A DNA stretch of 64,000 nucleotides from Sedimentisphaerales bacterium (GCA_963666285.1 OY762711.1); one strand, 5' to 3'. Numbered from the stretch's first letter, positions 9,064 to 46,169 are shown. A program made the numbers and translations. The notes: generated from the sequence alone by a model not told the origin.

Positions 9064-9178
9064 CTCTACTCTAATTTTGGGGCAGAAGTATTTATAAACC
9101 TTTTTATACTATTTAATTGGATTGGTTTAATAATAATTTGAAGTAATATTTATAAATTTAATATATTTAACAAAATGT

Positions 9179-11693: not shown

Positions 11694-11797
11694 TTATAAG
11701 TGGAATATCTATTACTTTATAAACATTATTAAGGCATTTGGATAAAACAGTGCCAATTAAAAGAAAACTTTTTAATAAGTTATATTTTGATATTTAT

Positions 11798-13364: not shown

Positions 13365-13388
13365 AATATTTGAGACTCCATATTAGTT

Positions 13389-20289: not shown

Positions 20290-20299
20290 CACTTGATTT

Positions 20300-20340
20300 T
20301 ACCTGCCGTCATTTGATAGAATGGCGGTGGGTAATTTTAT
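20300..20340 (+). terminator. Stem-loop/terminator after the 1001-aa gene
   Basis: TGCCGTCATT...AATGGCGGT stem followed by an AT-rich run. Confidence 0.5.
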
Positions 20341-20368
20341 TTATACAAACAACTTACAGGAGAGAAAT

Positions 20369-21007: not shown

Positions 21008-21028
21008 ATCGAATTTGGAGTGTGCCTT

Positions 21029-26736: not shown

Positions 26737-26739
26737 GGT

Positions 26740-30523: not shown

Positions 30524-30739
30524 AAATTATTTAAAAGATAAAAAGAAATTACGACATTTTCAGCTAATGTATGTGGATCTGATTTGTACAAAAATCCCGG
30601 CAGCTCAGTCCCATCTATGTCTTCGCTTCACATATAAACAAAGCTTACGTGTTGATTAATGAGATCGAAGAGCTTGTCAGGTTAGTTCCAGAGTTGAAGC
30701 ATAAATTGACCGACATGTCATCTGGCGGTTACTGCCAAA

Positions 30740-30895
30740 TCATACTTCATATTCTTCTTCAACAACAAAATCAAAACTTGCTCCTACCAATGAGCATATT
30801 TCATTTACTTTTTGATATGCCACTTTTTCAGCAGCTTTTATATCATTTGCCTCAATCCAAAAACTAAAGTTTGGTATTACGTTAAACACTTTCAT
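30740..30895 (-). CDS. Small hypothetical protein (51 aa, MKVFNVIPNFSFWIEANDIKAAEKVAY...), below the ORF-track cutoff
   Basis: Translated by hand; GAGG ribosome site; lies directly downstream of repeat copy 1. Confidence 0.55.
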   Translation of the reverse strand: MKVFNVIPNFSFWIEANDIKAAEKVAYQKVNEICSLVGASFDFVVEEEYEV

Positions 30896-30929
30896 AATCT
30901 TCCTCGTTATATTAAATCATATTGGAGCA

Positions 30930-30964
30930 TTTATATACTCTACTCGCATACGTGACCAATGACC
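30930..30964 (-). promoter_or_regulatory. Conserved 35-bp upstream repeat, copy 1 (TATA + upstream motif)
   Basis: + strand TTTATATACTCTACTCGCATACGTGACCAATGACC. Confidence 0.75.
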
Positions 30965-30970
30965 ATTGAA

Positions 30971-31375
30971 TCAAGCACTTCCATAACACATAAGCCTGAT
31001 CACATCCCTCAATAGTACCTGCAATACTACCTGCTCTCCTTCATTAAAACTTTTAGTAAGTTCTTTGACTTTAATAAAGAAATTGCCACCACTTCGATTA
31101 ACCCATATTTGTGTGCTATTGTCATTGTATCGATGAACAAAATCAACAGAGTCTTTTTTCCCTATCAATACATTTAATATTCCCCCAAGTTCTGAATCAT
31201 CCATCTTAACTTTTTTCCAGTTATATTTCCCATCTGTTTTAAGCCCAAAATGAAAAAAGCAAACTTTCTTATCATTTAACAATACTTTAAGACAGCTAGT
31301 TTTTCCAAAAAACGCTTTGTTTACAACATACCCTGTTTTCTCTGGCATACTACTTTCATATATTTTTGTTTCCAT
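30971..31375 (-). CDS. Hypothetical protein, possibly a Whirly/PC4-like ssDNA-binding protein
   Basis: GGGGT ribosome site; KVKMDDSELGGIL and KSFNEGEQVVL resemble Whirly strand-helix repeats (inference). Confidence 0.5.
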   Translation of the reverse strand: METKIYESSMPEKTGYVVNKAFFGKTSCLKVLLNDKKVCFFHFGLKTDGKYNWKKVKMDDSELGGILNVLIGKKDSVDFVHRYNDNSTQIWVNRSGGNFFIKVKELTKSFNEGEQVVLQVLLRDVIRLMCYGSA

Positions 31376-31446
31376 TGTTTTACCCCGTATATATTTTCAT
31401 GTACCACCATTCCCATCTATACAAACCCAAAAAGTAAAAAAGAAAA

Positions 31447-32928
31447 TCAAATAAGTACCTTTGGTACTTTTCCTTTGATTGCTTCCAAATTCTTTTGCTC
31501 CATAAAGCAGTTTTTCATCTCAACAAGCTTAAGTGTCGGCTCAATTTTTACACCTAACTCATCCCCAAGATTCACAAGTTGCTCTTTTGTATATAATTTC
31601 AGAAATTCCTCATTCATTGAGAAGTGTTTTTCCCAATCTAAGCCAAAAGCTTTTGAGCTTTTCTCTGTTTCAGAAAAATCTAAGTCATACATCGCAACCT
31701 TTGATATTTCAACATACATCTGATCAAGCTTCGCTTCATCTTCTCCATAAAATATCTTCATGAATTTATCTGAATAAGGTGAAAAGCAATAGCCAAATAT
31801 ATTCTTAAACTGCTTTTCAATGCTAGCACGATAATTTTTCAATAGCTGATACAAGCATAGGACTTTAACTTGCTTCATGCCGTTTTTAGCAAGACCGCTC
31901 CCGATCTTTTTCATTTCATCATATTTATAGGCATGTATTCGAGACTTTAGCCGTTGCTCTTTTGTGGCAGTCAATTCCTGTTTTGGTGGTTCATTGTTCT
32001 TGAAAATTGGTTTAATAAATTCCCTGACTCTTCCACGCTCATCAACGCTAACTAAATATGATTTTGGGTTTCTCTCTTTACGAATTGCTCTAATTTCTGC
32101 TTTAGTTAAAATTTGTTCTGCTCGCCATGAATCTGTATCAACAAATCCTTTTGGTGTTTGGTAGTATTCTCCTTCCCATAACACATTCGCATATTCTTTC
32201 CGTTTAGATTTCACAAACCCACTTACTTTATTATAAAAGCACTTTTGGTTCATACATTTACCATTCAAGACTTTACCAGTTTCAAACAGTTCTGATTGAA
32301 CAGAACCATTAAACTGACAACCTTTGCAGTCTTTAGTATCAAAACACGCATCGGCTAGTGTTTGAGAAAAACTTGAATACTGTAACGCTGTTTTTGCTCG
32401 TTCAACGCTGTGTTTATCTGTAATGATTACTTTTAGAAATTTCCTAGCTTCTACATTATTCATTTTCGCTAAAAGTAAAGCGTGTCCAATTTTGATTTTA
32501 TTTTGAATAATCGCATCCTTTACCGTTTGAGAAAGATTAACAATTAATATCCTTCTTTTAACATAATCGACAGGCTTTCCAAGTTTCTTCGCAAGATGCT
32601 CCTCTGTGTGGCTAGTTTCTACAAGATACTTCTTAAACGCCACACCTTCTTCGACAGCATTTAATTCTTTTCGTTGGATATTTTCGATTATCTTTGCTTC
32701 CTCTGTTGCTTCCTTATCTAACTCAATTATCCGTACAGGAACTTTCGTAAGCCCGGCAATCTTTGAAGCACGAAGTCTTCTTTCTCCTGCAATGAGTTCG
32801 TTTTTGTCATTAACAACCAAAGGCACAATAACACCTTGTTCTTTTATAGATAAGACGAGTTCATCAAGTCCTGAAAAATCTGTTCGAGGGTTTCCAATCA
32901 CTTTGATTTTTCCAATTTCTAAATCCAT
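31447..32928 (-). CDS. ParB/RepB/Spo0J-family protein resembling PRTRC-type ParB
   Basis: IAGERRLRA, ENIQR, HTH; Cys cluster CKGCQFN...CMNQKC; GAGGT + ATG at 32928. Confidence 0.88.
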   Translation of the reverse strand: MDLEIGKIKVIGNPRTDFSGLDELVLSIKEQGVIVPLVVNDKNELIAGERRLRASKIAGLTKVPVRIIELDKEATEEAKIIENIQRKELNAVEEGVAFKKYLVETSHTEEHLAKKLGKPVDYVKRRILIVNLSQTVKDAIIQNKIKIGHALLLAKMNNVEARKFLKVIITDKHSVERAKTALQYSSFSQTLADACFDTKDCKGCQFNGSVQSELFETGKVLNGKCMNQKCFYNKVSGFVKSKRKEYANVLWEGEYYQTPKGFVDTDSWRAEQILTKAEIRAIRKERNPKSYLVSVDERGRVREFIKPIFKNNEPPKQELTATKEQRLKSRIHAYKYDEMKKIGSGLAKNGMKQVKVLCLYQLLKNYRASIEKQFKNIFGYCFSPYSDKFMKIFYGEDEAKLDQMYVEISKVAMYDLDFSETEKSSKAFGLDWEKHFSMNEEFLKLYTKEQLVNLGDELGVKIEPTLKLVEMKNCFMEQKNLEAIKGKVPKVLI

Positions 32929-32938
32929 TTTACTAACC

Positions 32939-33121
32939 TCAAAAAGGAGAGCCGAATACCTCGGCAATCTCATCTACAAATCTATCAAGCATCATGCTAT
33001 CCTCCCTTAAACTCATCTTTTGATTATGAGTAAACATTGTGCTTTCTTGATTTTCCGAAAGCTTTTTATTTAAGGATATTATTTCCTTTCCATTGGATTT
33101 ATTTTGTATTTTGTGGTACAT
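32939..33121 (-). CDS. Small hypothetical protein
   Basis: GGAG ribosome site; lies between repeat copy 2 and parB. Confidence 0.4.
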   Translation of the reverse strand: MYHKIQNKSNGKEIISLNKKLSENQESTMFTHNQKMSLREDSMMLDRFVDEIAEVFGSPF

Positions 33122-33187
33122 TTTGAATCTCCGAGTTTATGGGTGTTACCGCACCCATTTACTCTACTTCTTAGTAAGTTTAATCTC

Positions 33188-33222
33188 TTTATATACTCTA
33201 TCCGCACACTTGACCAGTGCCG
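33188..33222 (-). promoter_or_regulatory. Conserved 35-bp upstream repeat, copy 2
   Basis: + strand TTTATATACTCTATCCGCACACTTGACCAGTGCCG. Confidence 0.8.
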
Positions 33223-33294
33223 ACGACAAAATAAAAAAGTAATGGTGATAAATTCGAGATATTGACTTATTAAAACAAAAATCAATCTCACTTT

Positions 33295-34092
33295 TTAGCT
33301 TACCCACTTGTTCAAATCGTCATTATGATACTTTCCTTTTTGTATGACGATATTATTAGTTGTGGTGCGTTCTATTGTTACCTTGCGAATATCATTATTT
33401 CTATAAGATTTATCGATATATTTGTCAGGGTTACATTGTAATTTATTGACTTGTTCAAGCATAAGAACAACCATATATCTATAGTCAGTCAAAATCATCT
33501 GAATCTTACACATTTTGACACATAATGAATCAATGTCACTCCCGACAAACTCAAAGTAATCAAGACCCGCCAAACCAGCTTCTTCAATAATTACTTTTTT
33601 ACATGCCAAAAGCATCGCACCAGAGCCGACGCACGGCTCCATGATCGAACAATTTTTATTATCCACTTTAGCTTTTACTATTCTTTCTTTTACATTACCA
33701 AGATTCATTTTTGCCATCACTTCACAAATATGAAAGGGTGTAAAAAGCTGTCCTAATGCTTTGGATTTGCTAAGTGAAGCAACTTGCATATAAATTTCAC
33801 CTAGATAATCCCATATACAATAATCATAACAAAATGCTTTTATTAACAGTCCGACAATTTCAGAAGCAATTTGAACTGCTCTTTTATCCATCTTGCTAAC
33901 TGCCTGCATGTATTTTTCTTCTTCTTGTTGAAGTGCATAAAGTGCTAGGTCAATAATCTGCTCAAAAGTATTCGCCCAACCACCAAAAAGAGCATAATTT
34001 TTCTCAATCAATTTTATGATTTGCTGAACAGTATCTTTTGCGTTACCAGTTCCTTTAATTGGCTCATCCCAAGATTCGTTTATATTATCCAT
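33295..34092 (-). CDS. N6-DNA-methylase-like protein (SAM-binding half; no NPPY/F seen)
   Basis: LGQLFTP, MEPCVGSGAML, GSDID. Confidence 0.75.
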   Translation of the reverse strand: MDNINESWDEPIKGTGNAKDTVQQIIKLIEKNYALFGGWANTFEQIIDLALYALQQEEEKYMQAVSKMDKRAVQIASEIVGLLIKAFCYDYCIWDYLGEIYMQVASLSKSKALGQLFTPFHICEVMAKMNLGNVKERIVKAKVDNKNCSIMEPCVGSGAMLLACKKVIIEEAGLAGLDYFEFVGSDIDSLCVKMCKIQMILTDYRYMVVLMLEQVNKLQCNPDKYIDKSYRNNDIRKVTIERTTTNNIVIQKGKYHNDDLNKWVS

Positions 34093-34133
34093 TTTTCACT
34101 ATATCTAAACAATGTGGCTTTATACCACAAAAA

Positions 34134-35033
34134 TTAATTTTCATGTTTTACGTTAAGGATAAAGTCTGCGGCTCTCTGTGCCTTACTAGCCGCCATCATT
34201 ACAAGCCTGTTATCGTTTGATATAGCTTTTTTCCAATTCTCAATATATGCCGCCGAATTTTCTATTGTATCGTTTTCTATTCGAGTATGTCCGCAAAGAA
34301 AACAACTTCCCATTTCTGCCACCAATTCCTCTTTTGCATATTCTCGACTTTCAAGTTTAGATTTTTTCATTACTTCAAAATTTCTATTACATCGGTTTGG
34401 GTGTGCTGTGCTGTGTATCAGTTCATGAAACAAAACACTATAATACTTTTCTTTACAAATGAATTTACTTTTTTGTGGCATATGTATTTTATCTGTTGAC
34501 GGTCTATAGTATGCCATGCCCATCCCTTCATGGTCGATTTCAGGGCAGTTTGGCATACTATTTATTACTTCTTCACATGTCTGTATTGGAGAAAATTCCA
34601 GTTTCTCGGTTTTGGCATCTTCTGGTATCTCTATTCCTTCTACTTGATCAGCATTAAATACTCTGTAATATTTAGGAACTGCAAAAGATCGTCCGACTTC
34701 CTCGCCGTTTTCGTCATCACTTTCAAACCATAACCAGAAAACAACTATTTCAGACTTTGCCCCAGCTTTAACATGTCCGCCTAACTCTTTAACCTGCTTG
34801 AATGTTAGCCAATATTGGCTTTTATATCCGTTTACAATTTGCGAAGCGTTAAGTAGCCAAGTGTTAATCCCTCGATACTTACGACGAGTTGTTAAGTTTT
34901 GTGGGAGTTCGTCATCATTCCAAGGTTGTTTCCAGGGAACGCAACCTTTATTTAATAATTCTAAAACTCTGTCTGTAATTATTTGATAAACATCTTTTTT
35001 CGGTTTTCTGGTATTATCTCTTTTCCCTTTCAT
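34134..35033 (-). CDS. ardC: ArdC-family antirestriction protein (ssDNA-binding + zincin-like domain)
   Basis: VPWKQPW, YRGIN, WLTFKQ..GG.V..G, VFNADQ, HELIHST, YAKEELVAE. Confidence 0.93.
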   Translation of the reverse strand: MKGKRDNTRKPKKDVYQIITDRVLELLNKGCVPWKQPWNDDELPQNLTTRRKYRGINTWLLNASQIVNGYKSQYWLTFKQVKELGGHVKAGAKSEIVVFWLWFESDDENGEEVGRSFAVPKYYRVFNADQVEGIEIPEDAKTEKLEFSPIQTCEEVINSMPNCPEIDHEGMGMAYYRPSTDKIHMPQKSKFICKEKYYSVLFHELIHSTAHPNRCNRNFEVMKKSKLESREYAKEELVAEMGSCFLCGHTRIENDTIENSAAYIENWKKAISNDNRLVMMAASKAQRAADFILNVKHEN

Positions 35034-35084
35034 TTTTATCACGTTAAGCCTTACTTGGCTATAACATATAAGAGATAAGTGACC

Positions 35085-35119
35085 TTTATATACCTCATCC
35101 GCACACTTGTCTAGTGACC
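35085..35119 (-). promoter_or_regulatory. Conserved 35-bp upstream repeat, copy 3 (upstream of ardC)
   Basis: + strand TTTATATACCTCATCCGCACACTTGTCTAGTGACC. Confidence 0.8.
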
Positions 35120-35426
35120 GAATACATTAACACGACTTATTAAAACTATATCCGAGAAATTTCGCATATAATCAATATCGTTCATTAAATAATTCCATCA
35201 TATAAACGAATAATGACGTGAAGACCTTTTGGTACATAACATATTTTTTCTTTCCAAGCCCCCCGATTCTTCTGGGGGTTGGAAGAGCAAAAATCTTATT
35301 AGAAATGAAGCGAGTGCAAAGCACTTTCTATAGTCAAAACATGGGTAGCGTTTCAATTACATTATTATTTTAACCTTCCATCTTATCTCATAAATATTTA
35401 TAAACATTTGTTGCAAAAGCAACTTT

Positions 35427-36215
35427 ATGATTTCCACTAGAAAACTAATAAGTCACCTTAAGTCTTTGCCTTCAGTTAAAGGGCTTGCCTATGCAGGAGG
35501 AAAATCAAAAGGATACTTTGACAAACATTCAGACATTGATTTAATTGTCCTAATCGACGGAGGCAATCCTAAAACCTTTTTTGACAAATATGTACATACT
35601 TTGGATATAGATGTTAGCCCGCATCCACATCTGTTTTCAGAATTAAAAGTAATTCCTATCAGAACCAGTTCTGATGACCTCGATTTCAAAATTATTACTG
35701 TTAAAGAATATAGTAATATTGCCAAAACTCCATCAGGCGACTTGTTTATTGCATACACCAAAGATATTAAAATAATATATGATCCAGATGGCATCCTAAA
35801 AACTGCAAAATATAAGAAAGTAGATGAAAAAAGTTCCAAGGAAGCTCTTAAATGGATCATTGCTCTTTTAAGGGCTGAACAAATGATGGAGGTTCTTATT
35901 GAAAGAGACGATCATGTCCATATAAATAATGCATTTTCACAAATAATTGTTCAAACAGTAAAGATTGTATATATTTTGAATAAAAAACCGTTCCTGTCAA
36001 CGAAATGGTCTACAAGGGACATTGCAAAAATGAAAATTAAGCCCAGCAACTTTGATGAAGAATTAAGGATTCTAACTCTTCTCGGAAATTCTCCTGATGA
36101 AGTTAAAACCAAAGTTAAAATCATCCAAAAAGTAAGCAATGAATTATACGCTTTAATTCAGAAAATTGATCCTTCAATTGACAAAGTTAAAGAATATGCT
36201 GGCTGGAGATATTAA
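35427..36215 (+). CDS. Nucleotidyltransferase-domain protein with helical C-terminal domain (DUF4037-like)
   Basis: GGKSKG.FDKHSDIDL motif; TTTATAAA ~25 nt upstream of the ATG. Confidence 0.75.
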   Translation: MISTRKLISHLKSLPSVKGLAYAGGKSKGYFDKHSDIDLIVLIDGGNPKTFFDKYVHTLDIDVSPHPHLFSELKVIPIRTSSDDLDFKIITVKEYSNIAKTPSGDLFIAYTKDIKIIYDPDGILKTAKYKKVDEKSSKEALKWIIALLRAEQMMEVLIERDDHVHINNAFSQIIVQTVKIVYILNKKPFLSTKWSTRDIAKMKIKPSNFDEELRILTLLGNSPDEVKTKVKIIQKVSNELYALIQKIDPSIDKVKEYAGWRY

Positions 36216-36243
36216 AGTAGGCTGTTAACTGCCTTTATCTTTT

Positions 36244-36570
36244 CTAATCCTTTAGGTATTCAGGATATTCAAATTGTAACTGACTTTTTGCGAAAGGGCA
36301 TAATCCACGAACTAAGCCTTCAATAGATTCAGAATTAAGTCTTTCCATTTCATAATCTAACTCCATATTATTTTGATATTTAAGAGGTATTCCATTATAT
36401 ACATTAGTTTTCAAATTCGCTGATACAGCTCCATCTATATATCCTTGTATATACATCATATGCTCTGGTTCTAAAGGAAATACCCCAATCGCTGCATTAT
36501 GATAGTATAAAAACGTATAAGTATCCTTAACCTGTGCCAGGTATATATCGCTATTGCTCACTGAAGTCAT
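36244..36570 (-). CDS. Hypothetical protein
   Basis: ORF with an archaeal-type TATA (TTTATAAA) ~25 nt upstream. Confidence 0.55.
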   Translation of the reverse strand: MTSVSNSDIYLAQVKDTYTFLYYHNAAIGVFPLEPEHMMYIQGYIDGAVSANLKTNVYNGIPLKYQNNMELDYEMERLNSESIEGLVRGLCPFAKSQLQFEYPEYLKD

Positions 36571-36609
36571 AAACAAAGGTAATTTTCCTACGTTTATAAA
36601 CCTTATACA

Positions 36610-38028
36610 TCATTCAATAGAATACATCTGTACTTTCTGCCAATATGGAAATCTGTGTGAATCATCATATATTAAACCTCGTTCCTGTTCAAGATAGGAC
36701 AAGTACCCACTATCAACCCATGTGTTAGGGAATCTAAAAGGCACTTTTCTTTCCTTGCCGACAGGCTTAAGTTCTACATTAGCATTTTTAGCTGCAGATT
36801 CTGCTTCAGGTATCGCCAAATGTGAAAACTGTAAATATGTCTTTTTACCAATTATCTTACAGCGTTCAATAATATCGACAAGTAAATCAGTTCCGGCAAC
36901 AGTGGTTTTCAGTTTTAACTCTTCAAACTTATCTAATACTGGCAGATACGGTGGATTACAAACTATTAAATCATGTTTATTAAAATTAGTATTCAGCTTA
37001 GATGTAAATATACCAAGTTCAGATTTCAAATTTACATGCTTGTACTTTGATTTATTTAGATGCCAGTTTGTTACTCCATACAGATACGGCAATAATAACC
37101 AATCTGATAGAACAACCTCTTTAATGTTGGGATTTTTACTGGCAAGCATTATCCCTAAAAACCCTGTTCCAGAACCCATATCAAGCACAGAATTATATCT
37201 TTCCTCAAAGACACCTTCTTCTTCAAGAGTGTTTAACATGTAAAATGAGTCAATTGATGGAGGCCATAGCGGGTCTTCGCATTTCCAATAGAATTTAAGC
37301 CCTTCATACTTAAACATTACATGCCCATATACAAAATTATAATGTACATCTTTACCATGAGGGCTACTGTGTATCTGGCATTCATATTTCTTTGATGATG
37401 GTGTTGGAATGCCACAATGACAATCCCACATAACCAATGGCTTTTTTACTGTTATTTGTTTGGTTTTTGAACATGAATATGTGATTCTAGCCAAAGTTTT
37501 TGGAATGGTAACTGTTAATTCCGGTGTTGGAATACTATTTAGAAAAACATCTTCAAGGCTTGCTGTGTAAAAAATATCATTAAAAGCCTTAAACGAGATG
37601 TTTCGCTGCTGTATATGTTTATCTATATAGTCATAGTATTGTTCTTCAATCACTCCTCTTGGAGCAAATTTATGGTCACGGATTAAAGGTAGCAGGTTTT
37701 CGTCTATTTCCTTAAACTGCTTGGCATAATAACTAAAACTGGCTGACACATATTCTTCAGCATTGTCATTAGAGCTTGAAAGTTCGCTAAGTGTAACACC
37801 TAATGCAGCAGTCAATTTCTTTAATGTATTTCCATCGTATCGCTTTTGGACATTACTCAGACTTTCAATCTTTTTAATTGTTTTTTCACTGACACCTGAC
37901 TCATAAGCCAAATCATCGACAGTCCAGTTTTTGCGTTCTCGTAAAGTCTTAATCCTGGCTTTTATATCAGGAGTTATATCAACTCCACGACTACCAGTAT
38001 CTTTCCCTATCTTTCCATTACTTTCCAT
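36610..38028 (-). CDS. XRE-family HTH fused to a HemK/PrmC-like class I methyltransferase
   Basis: IKTLRERKNWTVDDLAYESGVSEKTIKKIE; WPPSIDS, LDMGSGTG, CNPPY; ATG at 38028 preferred. Confidence 0.85.
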   Translation of the reverse strand: MESNGKIGKDTGSRGVDITPDIKARIKTLRERKNWTVDDLAYESGVSEKTIKKIESLSNVQKRYDGNTLKKLTAALGVTLSELSSSNDNAEEYVSASFSYYAKQFKEIDENLLPLIRDHKFAPRGVIEEQYYDYIDKHIQQRNISFKAFNDIFYTASLEDVFLNSIPTPELTVTIPKTLARITYSCSKTKQITVKKPLVMWDCHCGIPTPSSKKYECQIHSSPHGKDVHYNFVYGHVMFKYEGLKFYWKCEDPLWPPSIDSFYMLNTLEEEGVFEERYNSVLDMGSGTGFLGIMLASKNPNIKEVVLSDWLLLPYLYGVTNWHLNKSKYKHVNLKSELGIFTSKLNTNFNKHDLIVCNPPYLPVLDKFEELKLKTTVAGTDLLVDIIERCKIIGKKTYLQFSHLAIPEAESAAKNANVELKPVGKERKVPFRFPNTWVDSGYLSYLEQERGLIYDDSHRFPYWQKVQMYSIE

Positions 38029-38153
38029 TACTTGCCCTACATCTAATTTGAAGAATTTAATATGATCATATCTGTAATAATGATCAAAAAACCATGATTT
38101 ACAAACAAAAATTATAGCAGATTGGATTCTAGTTACCAATAGAAAACTAACCT

Positions 38154-38729
38154 ATGAACATACTGAAAAAACTCTTTAATACGCCCAAAGCACATACGCC
38201 TTTTGTTTTAGTGCCACCAGGAACAGCCAGCAAACAAACATTAAATGTTGCTTATAGTGAGGAAGAGGCAGATTTGCAGGTAATTGCTAATAGCGGCATC
38301 AGCTTCGGTACTACATCTAAGGTAATAATTGATGAAGACCAGAACACTCATAACATAAAACAGGCTAACTCCTATCTGGTCGGCTCTGCTAAAAAAGTAG
38401 TAAGTTCTTTAGATCAAATTGCAGGCGTTTGCGTATTCTGTGAAAAAGAAACTATCAAGAAATTAAAAAATATTTCTGATGATGAAGCAAGGCTCCTGGC
38501 ATTAGTAGATATTGAGTCTGCTATTAGATGTCAAAACTGCAATTGCTTGATTTGTATTTCACACTCCAAACTAGTCGAAATCGATGGCCAAAGACTGCAT
38601 GTCTGCCCAAAATGCCATAATAAATTCAAGCCTAAATTCGGGTGGTTGAAGGTATTATTCGCCTTTCTATTCTCAGGCTTAATTACTCTATTTTCTGAAG
38701 ATTCATCAAGGGGTGGTTCTCATGAATAA
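38154..38729 (+). CDS. Cys-rich (zinc-finger) protein with C-terminal TM helix
   Basis: CVFC, CQNC..IC.SH, CPKC; hydrophobic tail. Confidence 0.7.
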   Translation: MNILKKLFNTPKAHTPFVLVPPGTASKQTLNVAYSEEEADLQVIANSGISFGTTSKVIIDEDQNTHNIKQANSYLVGSAKKVVSSLDQIAGVCVFCEKETIKKLKNISDDEARLLALVDIESAIRCQNCNCLICISHSKLVEIDGQRLHVCPKCHNKFKPKFGWLKVLFAFLFSGLITLFSEDSSRGGSHE

Positions 38730-40746
38730 TAAAGTCAAGTTTGACAAACTGGAAGCTGAATTAAAAGCATCTGAACTCATATATGAGCCAAGTGTGGCAT
38801 GCCTATTCGGAGTTCTTGAAAACAATTACAATCAAAACAAAAATCAAGCAATCTTTAACTCACTTTATAATCGTTTATCAGCAGTATTAAATGATAATAA
38901 GTATACCGCTAAAAGAGAACCTGATTTCTTTAAGCCATACGCACCTGAAGTATTCTGTAATGATGGTGATATACATGTTAGCACACAACCCGATGGCATC
39001 GAGTACAACATTGATGTGAACGCATTACTTAGATGTTCATTAGTATTAGGTTCACAGGGCAGTGGAAAAAACAGACTGTTAATGACATTACTGATTCAGA
39101 TCAAGACACTATACCCTGCGATCAAAATATGTGTTATCGATTTTAAGAATGGATTTAGAAATTTACATCAAAAAATTAACGCCAAAGCTATCAACTTAGA
39201 AGATCTTAGCTTAACTTTAGACCCGCCTTCTGATATGTCACAAGAGGCTTTTCTATACGAGCTAACCAGTCAAATCGCCGAATCCACAGGCATCATTTAC
39301 GGCGTTGACCTTATAAATACCGCAGCTGAAAGAGCATTAGAAAAAGCAAATGAATTGAAAAATATTACCAAAGCTGATGTCAGCTTATGCCTTAAAGATA
39401 TTTTAGATGAACTCGGTCAAATCCAGACTAAAAGCTATCGTATTGGAGGATATCTGGATGCTGCAAAAACCGCATTATCTTTCTTAATCGGCAAATCAGC
39501 ACTGTTTAGTTGCAGAAAAGGCTTATCGATAAAAGACATTGTCAAGCACAACTGCATAATTAACTGCCGATCTCTAACACATGATACCCAGGCACGCTGG
39601 TTGGTTACGCTACTATTATACTTTTTATTCCAAGAAGCCAAAAATGATGAAGAGAGCAGAACTCTTAAACGTATCATTGTCGTTGACGATGCAAATCGAG
39701 TGCTTCAAAAACAAAAGATGGGAAATACTATAAGTTCTCTCGGTAATATACTTTCTCTGCTTCGTGCTACCGGAACTGCTCTGATTGCGGCCTCGCAACT
39801 GCCAAGCCTTATAAGTCAGGATATTTTAAGCTTGAGTAAATGTATGTTTACTGTCGGTAGTATCAATGGCTCAGAGCATCTTAAAGTAATACAAAACTTT
39901 ATGGGCTTAACATACGACCAAACTAACCAGCTTACACAGTTCAAAAACCGTCAATCGCTTACATATATATCCGGCTCATCTTATAGCAAACCAATACATG
40001 GATTTGTTCCATTCGTTGAAGATTTTCCAATAACACCTCAGCATTACGAGGATTATTCAAACTTAATAACTCCCTGGCAACCATTATCAAAAATGATAAA
40101 AGAAGCTTCAACCCCAACACCTGTAAAAGAAGTTGCCAAAGAGACTCCAAAACCAAATACCACATCAGATCGACTAATCTACGACTGCATAACTTATCCA
40201 TACGAAAAAGTCAGAGAAAGAGTCAAGCGACTCGGCATGTCAGTTCGCATATATGAAACCTCAATGAATGCTGCAATAAATGAAGGTTATCTTGAAAGAT
40301 CTTCCGCTGGTAAAAGTGTCTTTTTAATTGCTACACCAAAGGCGTTTACTAAATACAACATACCTTCTCCATACGCAAGAAGTACATCTATAACTCATGC
40401 TTTTTACACTAATCTTACTGCATATACACTTAAACAAATGTCAAATATTCAAAATGTGAAGACAGAACTTCCCATTGGAGCAAAAGGTCAAACCATTGAT
40501 GTTGTTTGCACTGACTCAGATGGAAAGATGATGGCAATTGAGTTTACCCAGAGCACCTCTAATTTGCTCGCAAACGCATCTAAACTCCAGGATACCGCAT
40601 ATTCCACCATCATGTGGTTATGTAAGGACGCTGCAACTGCAAATTCTGTAAAGGCATATTTTAATAAAAACACTTCATTAAGTGAATCGTTCAAAAGTAA
40701 ATTCAAATTCGTAAACATAGCTAACTTCATGAAAGGAAAGTTTTAA
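38722..40746 (+). CDS. HerA/VirB4/VirD4-like P-loop ATPase with a C-terminal PD-(D/E)XK-like domain
   Basis: Walker A GSQGSGKN; VIDFK; Walker B IIVVDDA; ASQ; C-terminal TIDVV...AIEF. Confidence 0.8.
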   Translation: MNNKVKFDKLEAELKASELIYEPSVACLFGVLENNYNQNKNQAIFNSLYNRLSAVLNDNKYTAKREPDFFKPYAPEVFCNDGDIHVSTQPDGIEYNIDVNALLRCSLVLGSQGSGKNRLLMTLLIQIKTLYPAIKICVIDFKNGFRNLHQKINAKAINLEDLSLTLDPPSDMSQEAFLYELTSQIAESTGIIYGVDLINTAAERALEKANELKNITKADVSLCLKDILDELGQIQTKSYRIGGYLDAAKTALSFLIGKSALFSCRKGLSIKDIVKHNCIINCRSLTHDTQARWLVTLLLYFLFQEAKNDEESRTLKRIIVVDDANRVLQKQKMGNTISSLGNILSLLRATGTALIAASQLPSLISQDILSLSKCMFTVGSINGSEHLKVIQNFMGLTYDQTNQLTQFKNRQSLTYISGSSYSKPIHGFVPFVEDFPITPQHYEDYSNLITPWQPLSKMIKEASTPTPVKEVAKETPKPNTTSDRLIYDCITYPYEKVRERVKRLGMSVRIYETSMNAAINEGYLERSSAGKSVFLIATPKAFTKYNIPSPYARSTSITHAFYTNLTAYTLKQMSNIQNVKTELPIGAKGQTIDVVCTDSDGKMMAIEFTQSTSNLLANASKLQDTAYSTIMWLCKDAATANSVKAYFNKNTSLSESFKSKFKFVNIANFMKGKF

Positions 40747-40958
40747 TGAGTATAAAAAAGATATTTTCAATAGTACTGATTATTCTGTTTTTCATTAATT
40801 TTAACAAAATAGTCCTTAATGCACTCGAACCAATCTATGACTGGTTATGTAATAGCCTATCCTATATCAATCGTTGGGACAAGAATTTTCAATCTATTTT
40901 AGCTCTCATAATCGTAACTGTTTTTTTTGTTCTAATTATCAAACTATTTAGTAAATGA
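40746..40958 (+). CDS. Small two-TM membrane protein
   Basis: Two hydrophobic segments; TAATG translational coupling. Confidence 0.65.
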   Translation: MSIKKIFSIVLIILFFINFNKIVLNALEPIYDWLCNSLSYINRWDKNFQSILALIIVTVFFVLIIKLFSK

Positions 40959-40968
40959 AAGGCAAATA

Positions 40969-41184
40969 ATGCAACTTCCAAAGAACGGACTTCCCAAAGT
41001 TATCACTGGCATAATCTGTTTTACAGTAATCCTTGCAGGCAGTAACCACATTGCAACATTTCTGCGAGCAATAGCAAACCCTGGACGTTCCGGGGGCAGA
41101 CCAGAAGATATCCTTATTGGTGGGATGTTGCTATCAATAGGTTTGATAGCGTTAGTCGGTATTTACAAACTATTTTCAAAATAA
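40969..41184 (+). CDS. Small two-TM membrane protein
   Basis: Two hydrophobic segments; ends KLFSK like the preceding ORF. Confidence 0.65.
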   Translation: MQLPKNGLPKVITGIICFTVILAGSNHIATFLRAIANPGRSGGRPEDILIGGMLLSIGLIALVGIYKLFSK

Positions 41185-41197
41185 AGGAAACATACAA

Positions 41198-42286
41198 ATG
41201 GACAATTACACAGCATTTTCTCACATCGGTGGTCGTAATGACCAGCAAGATAATTTTTTAACATTCTCGGACAATTACCGTACATGCATTGCCGTTATGG
41301 ACGGAGCAGGTGGCCATAGTAATGGTGCATTAGCGAGCCAAACAGTAAAAGAGGTAATTGAAGCTAGTCTAAATGAAATGCCGCATGATATTACCCCAAA
41401 TGAAATAGCAAGTAATCTGGTCAGTATTGTTGAGCTGGCAAATGATACGCTTATACAGATGAAAGAAAAAGGCACTACTATGGCAACCACTCTTGCAATG
41501 GCATACATTCAAAATGATTTAACTTTCATAGTTTGGGTTGGTGACAGCAAGGTTTATCTGAGACGAAATAATAAACTATTTTGCCTTACTGTTGACCATA
41601 GCCAGGTAAGTGAATTTGTCATAAAAAGAATGATAAGCAAAGGAGATGTTCAATCCCACCCGCAAAAGAACATTCTAACCAGAGCAATCGGTGCAAGAAA
41701 TGCCGAACCTGATGGCATTTGTTTTGCCATTCAGGAAGATGATGAACTGCTATTAACCAGCGATGGTGTAGATGATGTATTCAGTGAAAGTGATATTGAA
41801 TCAATCTTATCCAAAACTAAAGAATCGGACAAAGCCAAAGCATTAGTTGAAGAAGCAGTTAATGTAGGGCCAAAAGATAATATAACAGTTATACATTATC
41901 AGCATAAGCCTGATTCTACCCAACCGGTTAACAATTGCTATTCTGGGCAAGCTGCAAGATTGGCTGAAGTTGATGTTAAAAGTAGTGATTCAGAACACCA
42001 AATTGATGTATTTGGTAATTTCGGTTTTGAAAGCAGTCATAATCTTGTTGGTAATATAATTACAATTGGTCGTGATGCTCGTAATCAAATATCAATTCCT
42101 GGTGATCCATATATGAACCTCAAGCATATTGGATTGGAAAAGGATGGTGATGGTTATGTCGTAACCGACCTTAACAGCTTTAACGGTTGTTATGTAAAGC
42201 TGACAGAACCAACCAGGCTCATCCCTCCATTTGAACTTATCATTGGTTCTCGTCGTCTATGTATATCTTCAACGCAGGAGAAATAA
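41198..42286 (+). CDS. PP2C Ser/Thr phosphatase + FHA domain
   Basis: R.DQQD, DGAGGH, VGDS, LTSDG, KDNIT; FHA IGRD...H...DLNSFNG. Confidence 0.92.
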   Translation: MDNYTAFSHIGGRNDQQDNFLTFSDNYRTCIAVMDGAGGHSNGALASQTVKEVIEASLNEMPHDITPNEIASNLVSIVELANDTLIQMKEKGTTMATTLAMAYIQNDLTFIVWVGDSKVYLRRNNKLFCLTVDHSQVSEFVIKRMISKGDVQSHPQKNILTRAIGARNAEPDGICFAIQEDDELLLTSDGVDDVFSESDIESILSKTKESDKAKALVEEAVNVGPKDNITVIHYQHKPDSTQPVNNCYSGQAARLAEVDVKSSDSEHQIDVFGNFGFESSHNLVGNIITIGRDARNQISIPGDPYMNLKHIGLEKDGDGYVVTDLNSFNGCYVKLTEPTRLIPPFELIIGSRRLCISSTQEK

Positions 42287-42288
42287 CA

Positions 42289-43446
42289 ATGAAAAAAGGG
42301 CAAATAATATTTAATAAACATGAAGTGCTTGATTTCATTGGCGAAGGTGGACAAGGAATTACCGCTGTTGGGCTTAACCATGATACAGGTAAAAGAGTCC
42401 TTGTCAAAGCCTTAAAATATGAATCACTAAGCAACCCCATTGCTTTAGAAAGGTTTCAGCGTGAAGGTGCAGTTCGTATCAATAACCCTTACATTGTAAG
42501 CCCCATTGAAGCGGACAGTAATTATATCATTTTCCCGTACATTGATGCCTTAAACATTGTGGATTTGATGCAAACTGGAGAATGGCTACCAAAACCTAAA
42601 GATATACTCACGATACTAATAAAATCTTGTTTAGGACTTCAATGCCTTCATGACCATAATATAATTCATCGTGATATTAAGCCAGGTAACATCTTATATT
42701 CACCTGAGAATGATGTTGTTGTTCTAATTGATCTTGGTATTGCACAGTTCATAGATGATCCAAGAATAACGCAAAGTTGTCATAATATTGCAACACCACT
42801 TTATGCATCTCCTGAACAGTTAACAAACCCTTTAAGTGTTGATCCTCGGTCAGACATATTTTCACTTGGCGTTACTGCTTATGAAATTGCAACGGGCATG
42901 CCAGCGTTTGCTGCATCGACAGTTGATGAGATCGCTAGTAAGGTTTTGTATGAAAACCCTGACCCTATCAAGGTAATCACTCCTCAATTGCCAGAGTTTA
43001 TTGCAGATGCAATTGAAAAAATGATGGCAAAGAATCCTGATGATCGTTTCCAAAGCACAAGCGAAGTAATTGATTTTCTAAGTGATACGGATATATACCA
43101 CTGCCTTGCTTGTGGTAAGAAAAGCGGATTTCGTTCGTGTAGTATCTGTGGCAGAAATTACATAGCAGAAAAGCTATTGATAGTCACACCCGACAATAGA
43201 AGACGAACATATAGCATTCCTATGGGTGATTTCTTTGTAGGCAGAAAACAGTTAGCAAACTATGAATACGTATCAAGTGACCATTGCAGGTTTAGTGTTG
43301 ATAATAGTGGTATTATCAAAATCAGTGATAACCAGTCAACCAATAAAACTTATGTAAACCGAAAGTTTGCAGGTCAACCAATACATATAACTCATAACGA
43401 TATTATTGAAATTTCAAATTTAACAGCATTTATTTTAAGTGCCTAA
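42289..43446 (+). CDS. Ser/Thr protein kinase + zinc ribbon + FHA domain
   Basis: GEGGQG, VK, HRDIKPGN, DLG, YASPE, SDIFSLG; CLACG..CSICG; VGR...S..H...STN. Confidence 0.93.
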   Translation: MKKGQIIFNKHEVLDFIGEGGQGITAVGLNHDTGKRVLVKALKYESLSNPIALERFQREGAVRINNPYIVSPIEADSNYIIFPYIDALNIVDLMQTGEWLPKPKDILTILIKSCLGLQCLHDHNIIHRDIKPGNILYSPENDVVVLIDLGIAQFIDDPRITQSCHNIATPLYASPEQLTNPLSVDPRSDIFSLGVTAYEIATGMPAFAASTVDEIASKVLYENPDPIKVITPQLPEFIADAIEKMMAKNPDDRFQSTSEVIDFLSDTDIYHCLACGKKSGFRSCSICGRNYIAEKLLIVTPDNRRRTYSIPMGDFFVGRKQLANYEYVSSDHCRFSVDNSGIIKISDNQSTNKTYVNRKFAGQPIHITHNDIIEISNLTAFILSA

Positions 43447-43476
43447 ATCATTAACCACTCATATAGGAGATAAATT

Positions 43477-44178
43477 ATGAGTAATAACAAAAATTATGAC
43501 GGTATTAGTACAATTCAAGAGCAAGACCTTCTGTCTCGTCAGAAAAGCCAGGGGCATGTTGATACTTCTATCCTGGACACTATCACTGAAAAGAATGTGT
43601 CAGTGCCAATGATAGGCAGGACAATATACTGCATTGATACTTCCAGCAGCATGAAGTGGAAGTGTGGACAGCATACAAAAATAGATTCTGTAAGTTATGC
43701 TCTGATATCCAGCTTTGGTATAGCTGCAAGATCAATGCCTGGGAATGAAGTGGCTTTGATTACTTTTGATTCATATTCAAAGACAGTATGTGGTTTTGTC
43801 AATATCGAACAAGGTTATCAACAGTTAGTCAAAACTGCAAAAAGTATGACAGCACAAGGTGGCACTAGCATACCAAATGCCCTTCAGACAGCACTTGATT
43901 TATTTGGGAATAATATATCATCTAATGACACCTTAATCTTAATGAGTGATGGTCAAGGTGGTAATGGTGTTCCATTGGCTAATGAACTTAAAGGGCATGG
44001 AGTTACTATTAAAGTAGTCGGTTTTGGTGGTGATAATGCTAACCTTGATGAAGCTATGTTAAAGAAAATGGCATCTGTGCAGGACGGCAAAGTTCTTTAT
44101 GAATTTGCATCTAACCGAAACAGTCTGACAAAGACTTTTGCTGATTATACTAAAGCAGATGTTACTAAAGTATTGTGA
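43477..44178 (+). CDS. vWA-domain protein
   Basis: MIDAS DTSSSM, GGT, LMSDG. Confidence 0.9.
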   Translation: MSNNKNYDGISTIQEQDLLSRQKSQGHVDTSILDTITEKNVSVPMIGRTIYCIDTSSSMKWKCGQHTKIDSVSYALISSFGIAARSMPGNEVALITFDSYSKTVCGFVNIEQGYQQLVKTAKSMTAQGGTSIPNALQTALDLFGNNISSNDTLILMSDGQGGNGVPLANELKGHGVTIKVVGFGGDNANLDEAMLKKMASVQDGKVLYEFASNRNSLTKTFADYTKADVTKVL

Positions 44179-44184
44179 TGGAGA

Positions 44185-44412
44185 ATGGTAATGAATTCTA
44201 TTGATACACTTGATTTTATAATAAAGACTTTTTTCTGGTTGATGAATTTGTTTTTGATAACGGTAATGGTTCTTCATATATATTCATCAGTCTTTGGCGG
44301 AATTAATCTGCTAAATAGATTTAGCATAAAAAAATTCATTCCATCTAATAAATTATTCAATGCTCCAAAAGACTCTAATCAGAAGTCTGGAGAAATATAC
44401 TTTAATGATTAA
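44185..44412 (+). CDS. Small single-TM hypothetical protein
   Basis: GGAG ribosome site; hydrophobic segment. Confidence 0.5.
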   Translation: MVMNSIDTLDFIIKTFFWLMNLFLITVMVLHIYSSVFGGINLLNRFSIKKFIPSNKLFNAPKDSNQKSGEIYFND

Positions 44413-44421
44413 ATCTGATTT

Positions 44422-44460
44422 AGTCGGACACTTTCAATTGCTGGGGGGTGTCCGGCTTTT
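44422..44460 (+). terminator. Intrinsic terminator between the signalling operon and xis/int
   Basis: AGTCGGACAC...GTGTCCGGCT followed by TTT. Confidence 0.6.
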
Positions 44461-44467
44461 AAATAAA

Positions 44468-44725
44468 ATGACTATGGAAAATATACCAAATACATCCGAT
44501 AGTGATTGGCCTAAAAGACCTGTTTCATTCCCAAGTCTTATGACACCAATTGAAGCTGCTATGTATCTAAGATTAGATGAACTTGGATACACTCCAAAAG
44601 CAGCTAAGCGTACTCTAAAATATTGGCGTGATCAGTACATGTTAAAGGCAACAAAGTACGCAAGGCATGTATGGTTTTTGAAGGATGAGTTAGATAATTT
44701 CTTAAAAGAGAGGACAGAAAAATGA
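44468..44725 (+). CDS. Excisionase-like HTH protein
   Basis: LMTPIEAAMYL...TLKYWR....L.A......VWF..DELDNFL; directly upstream of the integrase. Confidence 0.8.
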   Translation: MTMENIPNTSDSDWPKRPVSFPSLMTPIEAAMYLRLDELGYTPKAAKRTLKYWRDQYMLKATKYARHVWFLKDELDNFLKERTEK

Positions 44726-44812
44726 GCAAAGATTTATCTTGCTATTTGTCTATTTTTGATCAAAGATGGACACGTCAGTCGCTACTGGTCAACCCCGGAA
44801 AGGAGTTTCCCA

Positions 44813-46021
44813 ATGGCAACAATTAAAGTAGGCGTATATCGTAAATGGCTTGAGCCAGTACCTAATGACGCTGACGGCAACCCAATGCCTAAAGAATTAT
44901 GGAATAAAAACAGACGCCATAACTGGGCAGTAAGATGGGTAGGCAATAATGGTAAGCGTTACGGTAAAATTTTCAAGACCAAACGTGAGGCAGAAAGATT
45001 TGCCCATTTGACACAGGAAAAAGTCAATAAAGGCAAAGCTGACAGGCCAAAGAATATCACAATTAAAGATTTTCGAATTGAACATGAAAAAATATTGAAA
45101 GGCCAAGTTTCACAATCCTCTTATATAGAGCATCGATATACCTTAAGGCTCTTTGAGAATTTTATAGGAGAAACTAAATTATTAGATAAGATTCATACTT
45201 GTGATGCAGAAGCATTTATTGCTGACAAGTTAGCTAGTAAAAAATTTGCTTATGCAACAATCAATAAGTATCACAGAACTCTTAAGGCAATATTCAATCG
45301 AGCAATTGATAGAGAATATATTGATGAAGGCACTAATCCTTTTGTTAAGATCAAACCACGAAAGGTTACTGCTACCCCTAATCATTATGTTACGGTAAAG
45401 GAATTTTTAGCTCTTCTTGATTCTGCAAAAAATAAATTGTGGTGGAAAACTTTTATTTCTATCGCATATAGTAGCGGTCTTAGAAGAAATGAAATTGTTC
45501 ACCTAACATGGAAACATGTCGATTTTGTTAATCAGCGTATCGAAGTATCAGCTAGAAAAGGCTCAGATAACATAATCCCGTGGGAGCCAAAAGGTAGGAC
45601 CAACCGTATTGTCCCTGTTTCTGAGGACGCTCTAAAATTATTGATTGATATGCAGGTAAATACACCAGAAGGCCATCCTTATATATTTATTTCCCCCAAA
45701 CGCCTGAAACGGGTTTTGGAACGAATTGATGAGGGTAGCTGGCACGACAGAATTGAAGTAATAAATGGTATGAGCCGAGATTTTGAGGTTATTAGGGAAA
45801 ACGCTAGAGTTACCAAGTGTACCCTCCATGATCTTCGCAGAAGTGCCATAACAAATTGGGCTGATAAACTACCTTTTCAAACAGTCCACAAGCTGGCTGG
45901 CCATAAAAGTGTAAAAACTACTATGGATTTTTATCTATCTGTCCGCCAAGAAGATTATCAAAAAGCTAATAATATTTTGAACGAGATGATCGAGGCGGAA
46001 TTCCAAGTGACACCAAATTGA
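44813..46021 (+). CDS. Tyrosine integrase
   Basis: AAGGAG + ATG at 44813; SGLRRNEI, HDLRRS, LAGH, FY. Confidence 0.95.
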   Translation: MATIKVGVYRKWLEPVPNDADGNPMPKELWNKNRRHNWAVRWVGNNGKRYGKIFKTKREAERFAHLTQEKVNKGKADRPKNITIKDFRIEHEKILKGQVSQSSYIEHRYTLRLFENFIGETKLLDKIHTCDAEAFIADKLASKKFAYATINKYHRTLKAIFNRAIDREYIDEGTNPFVKIKPRKVTATPNHYVTVKEFLALLDSAKNKLWWKTFISIAYSSGLRRNEIVHLTWKHVDFVNQRIEVSARKGSDNIIPWEPKGRTNRIVPVSEDALKLLIDMQVNTPEGHPYIFISPKRLKRVLERIDEGSWHDRIEVINGMSRDFEVIRENARVTKCTLHDLRRSAITNWADKLPFQTVHKLAGHKSVKTTMDFYLSVRQEDYQKANNILNEMIEAEFQVTPN

Positions 46022-46057
46022 CACCATCGGCCTTTTTTGAGGCTTGGCAGAAAAAGA

Positions 46058-46090
46058 AAAGCCTCGTAAGTCTTTGACTTACAAGGCTTT
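46058..46090. terminator. Hairpin between the integrase and the tRNA (att-proximal)
   Basis: AAAGCCTCGTAAGTC-TTT-GACTTACAAGGCTTT. Confidence 0.7.
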
Positions 46091-46096
46091 ATTAAG

Positions 46097-46169
46097 TACG
46101 CCATTTAGGACTTGAACCTAAAACCCACGGATTAAGAGTCCGTTGCTCTACCAATTGAGCTAATGGCGC
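46097..46169 (-). tRNA. tRNA-Lys(CTT)
   Basis: GCGCCATTAGCTCAATTGGTAGAGCAACGGACTCTTAATCCGTGGGTTTTAGGTTCAAGTCCTAAATGGCGTA; full cloverleaf; CCA not encoded. Confidence 0.97.

Follow-up and report, generated by a model that had tools for sequence, protein, structure and literature searches.

A family of integrative elements carries a constant core of genes followed by a slot that holds one of five alternative cassettes. We describe it from a 64,000-nt stretch of DNA of a Sedimentisphaerales bacterium (GCA_963666285.1, OY762711.1), called the window below, in which positions 38154-46021 encode one version of the core, a cassette made of a phosphatase, a kinase and a vWA protein, an excisionase-like protein (xis), and a tyrosine integrase (int). 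The core consists of a FYVE-like zinc-finger protein, a HerA/VirB4-type ATPase continued by a winged helix-turn-helix (wHTH) and a nuclease-like domain, and small membrane proteins. Exactly one cassette occupies the slot at 31 of the 33 informative loci, two types never occur together, and cassettes are exchanged between related cores. With moderate confidence, we read the core as a transfer backbone independent of type IV secretion systems (T4SS), laid out like the integrative and conjugative elements (ICEs) of actinomycetes (AICEs) and gated by the cassette as a replaceable post-translational switch. We put forward only tentatively the wider proposal that these are new T4SS-independent elements of the Planctomycetota, in which any of five equivalent eukaryote-like modules would switch one HerA-type pump-nuclease through the FYVE-like adaptor.

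A constant core and a replaceable cassette

The run of the window comprises ten open reading frames (ORFs), all on the + strand and in the order given by an earlier note written from the sequence alone. In the eight-gene module (38154-44412), the intergenic gaps are -8, -1, 10, 13, 2, 30, and 6 nt. The start positions of four genes were revised: ATPase (38722), kinase (42289), xis (44468), and int (44813). The PP2C and FHA, kinase and FHA, vWA, and tyrosine integrase domains that the note had read were recovered by Pfam, and its hairpin, xis, int, and terminal tRNA-Lys by folding energy, Pfam and PHROG matches, and ARAGORN.

38154..38729, + strand: zinc-finger protein, 191 aa, core (22-row alignment; structure model)
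38722..40746, + strand: HerA/VirB4/TrwB-type ATPase, 674 aa, containing a winged helix and a restriction-endonuclease-like domain, core (structure model, motifs, hydropathy)
40746..40958, + strand: TM1, 70-aa two-helix membrane protein, core (11 orthologues aligned; two hydrophobic segments)
40969..41184, + strand: TM2, 71-aa two-helix membrane protein (hydropathy; 45% identity to a second copy in the same genome)
41198..42286, + strand: fusion protein of a PP2C phosphatase and an atypical FHA domain, cassette T1 (Pfam)
42289..43446, + strand: Hanks Ser/Thr kinase-zinc ribbon-FHA protein, 385 aa, cassette T1 (Pfam)
43477..44178, + strand: stand-alone vWA protein, cassette T1 (Pfam)
44185..44412, + strand: small membrane protein (hydropathy)
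44422..44453, + strand: terminator-like hairpin at the boundary of module and xis (-21.2 kcal/mol, z -5.1, 4-U tail)
44468..44725, + strand: excisionase-like HTH_17 protein (xis), 85 aa (weak Pfam match, E 0.035)
44813..46021, + strand: tyrosine integrase, 402 aa (Pfam 1.5e-20; PHROG integrase 6.8e-59)
46051..46141, no strand assigned: attachment (att) site overlapping the 3' half of the tRNA (92 bp, 92% identity to its partner copies)
46096..46169, - strand: tRNA-Lys(CTT), the integration target (ARAGORN)

Related loci were gathered through their ATPases, from 9 genome loci, 18 metagenome loci, and searches of 401 Phycisphaerae genomes. Homologs of the ATPase number 4,598 representatives at E<=0.001 and 108 at 1e-30. 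A clade-A match (<1e-30) was found in 9 of the 401 genomes of the class and a clade-B match (<1e-25) in 11; in a phylum-wide sample, the figure was 2 of 401. The element family occurs mainly in the class Phycisphaerae of the Planctomycetota, in which the host of the window probably belongs, judging by the named nearest loci. Loci whose contig ends at or just past the ATPase were dropped (L001, L002, L004, L006, L058, L062, L066, L068, and L071-L075), leaving 33 informative loci, 22 of clade A or A-like and 11 of clade B. Clade B differs in that a gene of its own encodes the nuclease-like part. The 31 cassette-bearing loci are distributed as follows:

T1, PP2C/FHA/kinase-FHA/vWA: 3 of 31 loci
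T2, vWA-PP2C-kinase(s), TerY-P-like: 8 of 31 loci
T3, ubiquitin-like, E2 with JAB and E1: 6 of 31 loci
T4, vWA(-FHA) and tubulin-like fusion: 5 of 31 loci
T5, GrpE-Hsp70-vWA: 9 of 31 loci

The two loci lacking a cassette (L044 and L090) look disrupted. Because certain loci, such as L059 and L064, are closely related, the 31 do not all represent independent events. One T2 locus, L008, lies in a genome labelled Syntrophomonadaceae (Bacillota), which may reflect transfer or mis-binning. On the 3' side of the slot, further small membrane genes are found, sometimes a primase (between cassette and xis in six related loci), and finally the xis and recombinase genes. In 17 of the 31 loci, the downstream recombinase gene, for an integrase or a serine recombinase, was called and is co-directional; among those without a call, the sequence ends first in about ten, two have a look-alike gene outside the scan, and two show none. 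A tRNA gene is nearby in 14 of the 35 loci scanned, representing nine tRNA types. In clade C, the sister clade, none of 12 loci has a cassette directly beside the ATPase. We observed the clade-C ATPase run at L079:7257-11209 and L078:370-4385 and in L041, L048, L054, and L056. In this conserved run, the ATPase is accompanied by genes for a winged-helix and a coiled-coil protein and in many cases by one for an N6/N4 methylase; the best NCBIfam match of the ATPase is CedD, under the cut-off.

Cassette and ATPase do not evolve as a fixed pair, as the earlier note had supposed for the triad. In the window-type ATPase clade, T1 is present in one of 21 cassette-bearing loci, and the rest carry one of the four other cassettes. 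At least 13 cassette changes are needed on a 30-row ATPase tree, where 4 would be the minimum possible; this count comes from quick trees with SH-aLRT only and two long branches, and the fragment L067 was omitted. Exchange is also visible at the DNA level. L060, which carries T3, is 79-80% identical to L059 and L064, which carry T2, over the zinc finger, ATPase, and TM1 genes, and the identity ends in TM1. The integrase of G044 is 63% identical to that of the window and is preceded by a gene 60% identical to the window xis, yet this element carries a T3 cassette. It sits at a tRNA-Phe and not at a tRNA-Lys, which rules out a shared integration site.

We also searched in the reverse direction, with a profile of the T1/T5 vWA proteins run against 386 genomes. 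It gave 24 matches in 22 of them, 10 at known loci and 14 at new ones. Six of the 14 share a run with a family ATPase, four with T1 (L103, L104, L106, and L114, the last with kinase and vWA only) and two with T5 (L105 and L113), and three stop at a contig edge. T1 was therefore found at seven loci in six genomes, with a family ATPase present every time, so that the association of the module with the ATPase family holds outside the window. In L111 and L112, the Hsp70/vWA cassette T5 is followed by membrane-anchored TraD/VirD4-like and Replic_Relax-like genes, on weak Pfam matches (E 0.003 and 0.009). The regions L111:12464-17336 and L112:12611-17157 hold the TraD/VirD4-like gene and two winged-helix genes, one of them Replic_Relax-like, and form a candidate mobilisation module. 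Just upstream of the T5 locus of L113, genes with the appearance of a type I-C CRISPR-Cas system were noticed (L113:12981-18528).

Proteins of the window run

According to the structure model (pLDDT 90.7), the ATPase motor has an FtsK-HerA family fold, closest to DndH (Z 29.9), VirB4 (27.2), and HerA (26.1), followed by TrwB (22.8) and FtsK (17.5). Its match to the FtsK/SpoIIIE Tra profile PF01580 (E 0.097) is under the cut-off. The middle part resembles a MarR-like wHTH (Z 10.4). The modelled C-terminal domain resembles AF1548 (Z 10.3 over 103 residues), whose fold we take to be restriction-endonuclease-like, and is probably a PD-(D/E)xK-like nuclease domain. The catalytic motifs of the run had been described as intact, and this was upheld for the kinase, the PP2C, and the vWA MIDAS, but neither for the ATPase nor for the FHA domain fused to the PP2C. 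The last residue of Walker A is Asn in the window copy and Ser or Thr in the other 26 of 27 aligned rows, 5 of 32 rows being gapped here; at Walker B, all 32 rows have DD. In the nuclease-like domain, the Glu preceding a conserved His (27 of 29 rows) is replaced by Thr. One sample was sequenced in two runs, whose contigs are identical over 30000-46106, so these residues are real and not an assembly slip. The unusual Walker A suggests that the window copy may be weakened or partly decayed, and intact relatives are therefore better suited for testing.

The zinc-finger protein (structure model, pLDDT 84) is predicted to consist of a beta-hairpin N-terminal part, a FYVE-like cross-brace finger at residues 89-160, and a C-terminal hydrophobic or amphipathic helix. 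In a VIA structure search, the top 14 rows were FYVE or related, with a middling best match (Z 6.0, rmsd 2.6, 54 residues); Foldseek returned no match under E 0.001. The positional counterpart in L113 matches Pfam FYVE at E 1.6e-4, under the cut-off. The earlier note had read a zinc finger with a transmembrane (TM) segment: the finger stands, whereas the tail passes the hydropathy cut-off in one of 22 proteins, that of the window.

TM1 is a conserved two-helix protein of 70 residues found behind clade-A ATPases, with no Pfam and no PHROG match. There is no support for a CedA1/VirB2-type pilin: the TM1 profile matched no pilin among Protein Data Bank sequences. TM2 heads the phospho-cassette in both copies of this genome. 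The small membrane protein at 44185-44412 occupies the place of a conserved two-helix membrane gene in relatives; its score against that downstream family, 3.8 bits, does not show it to be a member.

In the phospho-cassette, the two CxxC pairs of the kinase's zinc ribbon, the kinase and PP2C motifs, and the MIDAS residues of the vWA can be read directly from the sequence. The canonical Ser of FHA domains binds phosphothreonine. In the FHA domain fused to the PP2C, Asn stands at this position, and the Ser is missing in all three fused copies seen; in the kinase FHA domain, Gly-Arg and Ser are retained in seven of seven T1 kinases. PP2C and zinc ribbon-FHA are separate genes in four T1 relatives (L089, L103, L104, and L106), and from this comparison the window PP2C-FHA is evidently a fusion of such genes.

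By sequence similarity, the window vWA is not a TerY variant but groups with the vWA proteins of T5, the Hsp70 cassette: phmmer matches to T5 vWAs range from 1e-20 to 4e-11, and no PADLOC profile matched at E<=0.1, the TerY profile included. This profile recognizes the T2 vWA at 1.8e-17 but misses E. coli YegL. Therefore, we compared the window vWA with YegL directly (E 0.14). The order of TerY-P is vWA, PP2C, kinase, as in E. coli yegL-pphC-yegI, whereas the window has PP2C-FHA, kinase-zinc ribbon-FHA, vWA. By profile, YegL comparison, and order, the triad is thus not a canonical TerY-P, a deviation that had been anticipated; the same slot has a TerY-like triad as another of its cassettes. 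TerY-P kinases end in an OB-fold or a zinc ribbon; the window kinase has a zinc ribbon and then an FHA domain, and STK_OB is not among the listed 25 of its 34 PADLOC matches.

A second T1 cassette lies in the same genome at C1:2967437-2970703 (PP2C 47%, kinase 51%, and vWA 48% identical). It is located behind a clade-B ATPase, 21% identical to that of the window, and before a serine recombinase gene; the ATPase gene there is split into two ORFs, and the reading frame of the kinase is broken close to its beginning. A search for PP2C-FHA homologs at E<=1e-30 gave one outside protein, which comes without gene context. The kinase search at E<=1e-45 in the 401 genomes returned only this genome; the threshold was so stringent that it missed the T1 relatives identified subsequently.

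The host element and competing explanations

The att repeat, xis and int, and the tRNA-Lys target confirm the integrative element that had been predicted. Its minimal size was not borne out. The 92-bp att sequence recurs outside the window at C1:3372160-3372251 and C1:3343430-3343521, and the partner at C1:3372160 therefore gives an element of about 66 kb. Two genomes of the same genus are non-syntenic around the tRNA-Lys, so the left end is supported by the att repeat. The G+C content of the element is 34.8%, versus 41.2% for the contig. The segment between the two other att copies, which are identical (G000:C1:3343521-3372160, 28.7 kb), lies in tandem with the 66-kb element and contains sugar-active genes and insertion sequence-like transposase genes.

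22469..38139, no strand assigned: other cargo, namely a type I restriction-modification set, YgjP peptidase, ParB, N6-methylase, ArdC, nucleotidyltransferase, and a divergent helix-turn-helix (HTH)-methyltransferase gene (gene scans)

The last of these, at 36610-38139, encodes an XRE-type HTH fused to a protein-methyltransferase-like domain and lies 14 nt from the first gene of the module. The element also has additional integrase-like genes and another HerA-type ATPase, of clade C. Among the scanned genes of the element, we found no relaxase, T4SS, or capsid/virion family, and the HerA-type ATPases are thus the only pump candidates seen. A provirus was rejected, as the scanned genes include no capsid, portal, or terminase family and the ATPase core gave only a partial match to a terminase profile. 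Neither a viral nor a plasmid origin is indicated by the relatives of the ATPase: of 96 pattern matches among viral contigs none was confirmed, and 72,556 plasmids gave none.

Other genes of the element were noted in passing. A foreign-looking block of 27-34% G+C at 784-14906 encodes a 2759-aa FG-GAP surface protein, two PEP-utilising enzyme halves, HAD, radical SAM, and NUDIX proteins, and a dimeric-type glycyl-tRNA synthetase; we presume, as a guess, an archaeal or candidate phyla radiation source. A beta-helix surface protein and two PEP-CTERM-type genes at 17284-21790 have relatives elsewhere in the genome and on contigs C2-C3. Both elements of the genome carry a Janus/Ocnus gene (PF05005), at L079:15532-15927 (E 1.7e-6) and L078:18981-19418 (1.2e-7), respectively; we take this to be a phosphohistidine phosphatase family, mostly eukaryotic. 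The second element (L080:2133-10560) also encodes an OLD-type TOPRIM nuclease with a UvrD helicase, a pair that is presumably Gabija-like, and Eco57I-type restriction genes.

We favor a transfer backbone because the primase, xis, and int order is that of AICEs, because a HerA-nuclease pair donates DNA in Thermus, and because recombinase genes follow, and tRNA genes flank, many of the loci. The single-occupancy slot, the exchange of cassettes, and the TraD/VirD4-like and Replic_Relax-like pair behind T5 also count in its favor. After excision, the wHTH-nuclease part would recognize and cut a site within the element. The ring ATPase would then pump DNA via a membrane channel built or recruited by the small membrane proteins, with the zinc finger anchoring the pump to the membrane and the cassette exerting on/off control over assembly of the machine. 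In the window version, the kinase might phosphorylate a component, a mark that the FHA domains would recognize and the PP2C would reset, with the vWA protein serving as scaffold or substrate.

Several observations weigh against transfer. A hairpin stands between the module and xis/int, although terminator-like sites across the region are at chance level (8 observed, 6.7 expected), and no primase was found in the window run. No transfer, excision, or circle has been observed: the contigs, which are unable to show absence, contain no att joint or circular form. The ATPase has no hydrophobic segment above the hydropathy cut-off and hence no TM anchor, unlike TraB/VirD4, and its modelled fold would suit repair or defence HerA proteins no less than transfer ATPases. 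Its C-terminal domain has no Pfam match to PF13814 (Replic_Relax), the hhalign probability against this family is 0.2% with a two-sequence profile, and the Atlas score only 0.83. Its modelled fold is of wHTH and restriction-endonuclease-like type. These results give no support to a fused coupling protein-MOBC relaxase. Three of the 11 informative new vWA loci (L102, L107, and L115) lack both core and transfer genes. Finally, the TerY-P-like T2 and the Bub-like T3 are tied to defence in the literature.

The two alternatives of the earlier note, a defence variant or a switch of transfer or excision, remain the leading ones; we prefer the switch, and the identification as a TerY-P variant has been dropped. 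A regulated anti-phage or conflict system is a serious possibility, in which the HerA-nuclease and the two-helix membrane proteins would be effectors, destroying DNA and damaging membranes, and the cassettes alternative sensors or threshold switches. The T2 matches in PADLOC (TerY as above; STK_OB, 6.9e-10) speak for it, as do the anti-phage HerA structures among the top structural matches of the ATPase and the other defence genes in both elements of this genome. Defence genes carried as cargo do not usually have a fixed place in a backbone, however, and here the core keeps such a place beside primase, xis, and int. TerY-P triads are described as accessory to nuclease-helicase systems and TerY-P-like modules as anti-phage in the available text of PMC10542128, and three cassettes correspond to non-overlapping themes of GAP1-N2 systems (tubulin+vWA, Hsp70+GrpE, and kinase+PP2C+vWA) in that of PMC7159879. 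The JAB-E1 fusion of T3 resembles type I Bub; according to the preprint, protection against phage had not been shown for any Bub operon (bioRxiv 10.1101/2024.11.21.623953). As regards the anti-phage systems Sir2-HerA, HerA-DUF4297, and MADS, PADLOC gave partial, weak matches to the ATPase (mad8 4.9e-8; HerA 1.6e-6 or weaker, limited to the Walker A region), the NCBIfam anti-phage HerA models gave none, and no Sir2 or MADS partner gene is present in the run. The pairing of T5 with a coupling protein-like gene also argues against a purely defensive role.

That the slot is a mere recombination hot spot, filled with independent stress or defence cargo functionally unlinked to the ATPase, appears unlikely to us. 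Cassettes are freely exchanged, can lie upstream of the core (L083 and L106), and the vWA subfamily is also found without the core, as expected for such a hot spot. Nevertheless, at 31 of the 33 loci no unrelated cargo was seen in the slot, two types never occur together, and neighboring genes overlap or have only short gaps between them. Each of the five cassettes is a protein-modifying or protein-assembly module, and four of them include a vWA, which makes a hot spot less likely. We consider it highly improbable that the cassette acts on the host, rewiring its proteins or blocking its defences so that the element establishes in a new cell; ArdC and the DNA methylases of the element could hint at such a role, but no host target is indicated and every T1 locus seen is linked to the core.

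Little is settled about what bacterial vWA/kinase/PP2C triads, Bub-like ubiquitin operons, orphan tubulins, and mobile Hsp70 sets do. That they alternate in the same slot next to the same ATPase points to a target in common, which cassette swaps could probe. If the modules are truly equivalent, the slot is a natural swap experiment in which all five do the same job. A core that moves DNA would be a candidate route of gene transfer in Planctomycetota under phospho- or ubiquitin control; a defensive one would be a new HerA-nuclease chassis with five regulators.

Comparison with known systems

GAP1-N2 systems offer the closest parallel to the slot. As here, tubulin+vWA, Hsp70+GrpE(+DnaJ), and kinase-zinc ribbon+PP2C+stand-alone vWA are linked themes that do not overlap, with membrane association, according to the available text (PMC7159879). 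The mutual exclusivity of themes that characterizes them is found in our family, with a single cassette in 31 of 31 cassette-bearing loci. Their core is a TRAFAC GTPase with a GAP1 protein, and the same text places these themes mostly in Actinobacteria and Firmicutes (PMC7159879). In our family, a HerA-type ATPase-wHTH-nuclease and a FYVE-like finger make up the core, and the scanned genes of the window include neither a GTPase nor a GAP1 family. A ubiquitin-like theme is added, and the genes sit in the backbone of an integrative element. TerY-P shares the vWA, PP2C, and Ser/Thr kinase with zinc ribbon and is described as accessory to DNA-processing systems in the part available (PMC10542128). 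The window proteins belong to other subfamilies, in another order and with two FHA domains, and T2 is the TerY-P-like cassette. In type I Bub, as far as the available text goes (bioRxiv 10.1101/2024.11.21.623953), an E2-family gene and a JAB-like/E1 gene occur as in the T3 of relatives, which lies in tRNA-integrated elements; unlike in Bub, a small ubiquitin-like gene is separate in T3. Sulfolobus ArnA (FHA) and ArnB (vWA) are likewise a phosphorylation-dependent pair that controls a surface machine, likened here by description; in the part of PMC6509490 available they are chromosomal motility regulators outside mobile elements.

For the backbone, the AICE order reported in the available text is tRNA integration, a pump-type ATPase, small membrane genes, a primase-type gene, xis, and int, without T4SS (PMC3218068). 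AICEs carry a Rep or Prim-pol gene; in our family a primase was found in six related loci and not in the window run. The rest of this layout is shared, including xis and int at a tRNA with att repeats in the window. Unlike in AICEs, the ATPase has a fold closer to HerA/VirB4 (Z 26-30) than to FtsK/SpoIIIE (Z 17.5), lacks a TM segment, and has a nuclease-like domain; the host is no actinomycete, and a regulatory slot is not described in the part of PMC3218068 available. Thermus ICETh1 is alike in its FtsK-HerA ATPase, nuclease, methylase, and restriction enzyme within an att-bounded element, and its TdtA, a HerA-family ATPase acting with a nuclease, drives DNA donation according to the available text (PMC5365140). 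Its nuclease is NurA instead of a PD-(D/E)xK-like domain, and the same portion of that paper describes no zinc finger or cassette (PMC5365140). A VirD4 coupling protein with Replic_Relax is described as a mobilisation module in the accessible part of PMC5357655. Integrative and mobilizable elements with VirD4 and a MOBC/Replic_Relax relaxase likewise have an ATPase followed by a restriction enzyme-like nuclease, within what PMC5357655 and PMC6736028 make available. Such a pair lies directly behind T5 in L111 and L112, whereas the window ATPase is soluble.

We found no account of this core chassis in a literature search whose scope excluded subscription papers and the supplements on conflict systems, which could list such neighborhoods. 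The family has the defining core of none of TerY-P, GAP1-N2, AICE, and ICETh1. Every part has a precedent, and the combination appears to be undescribed.

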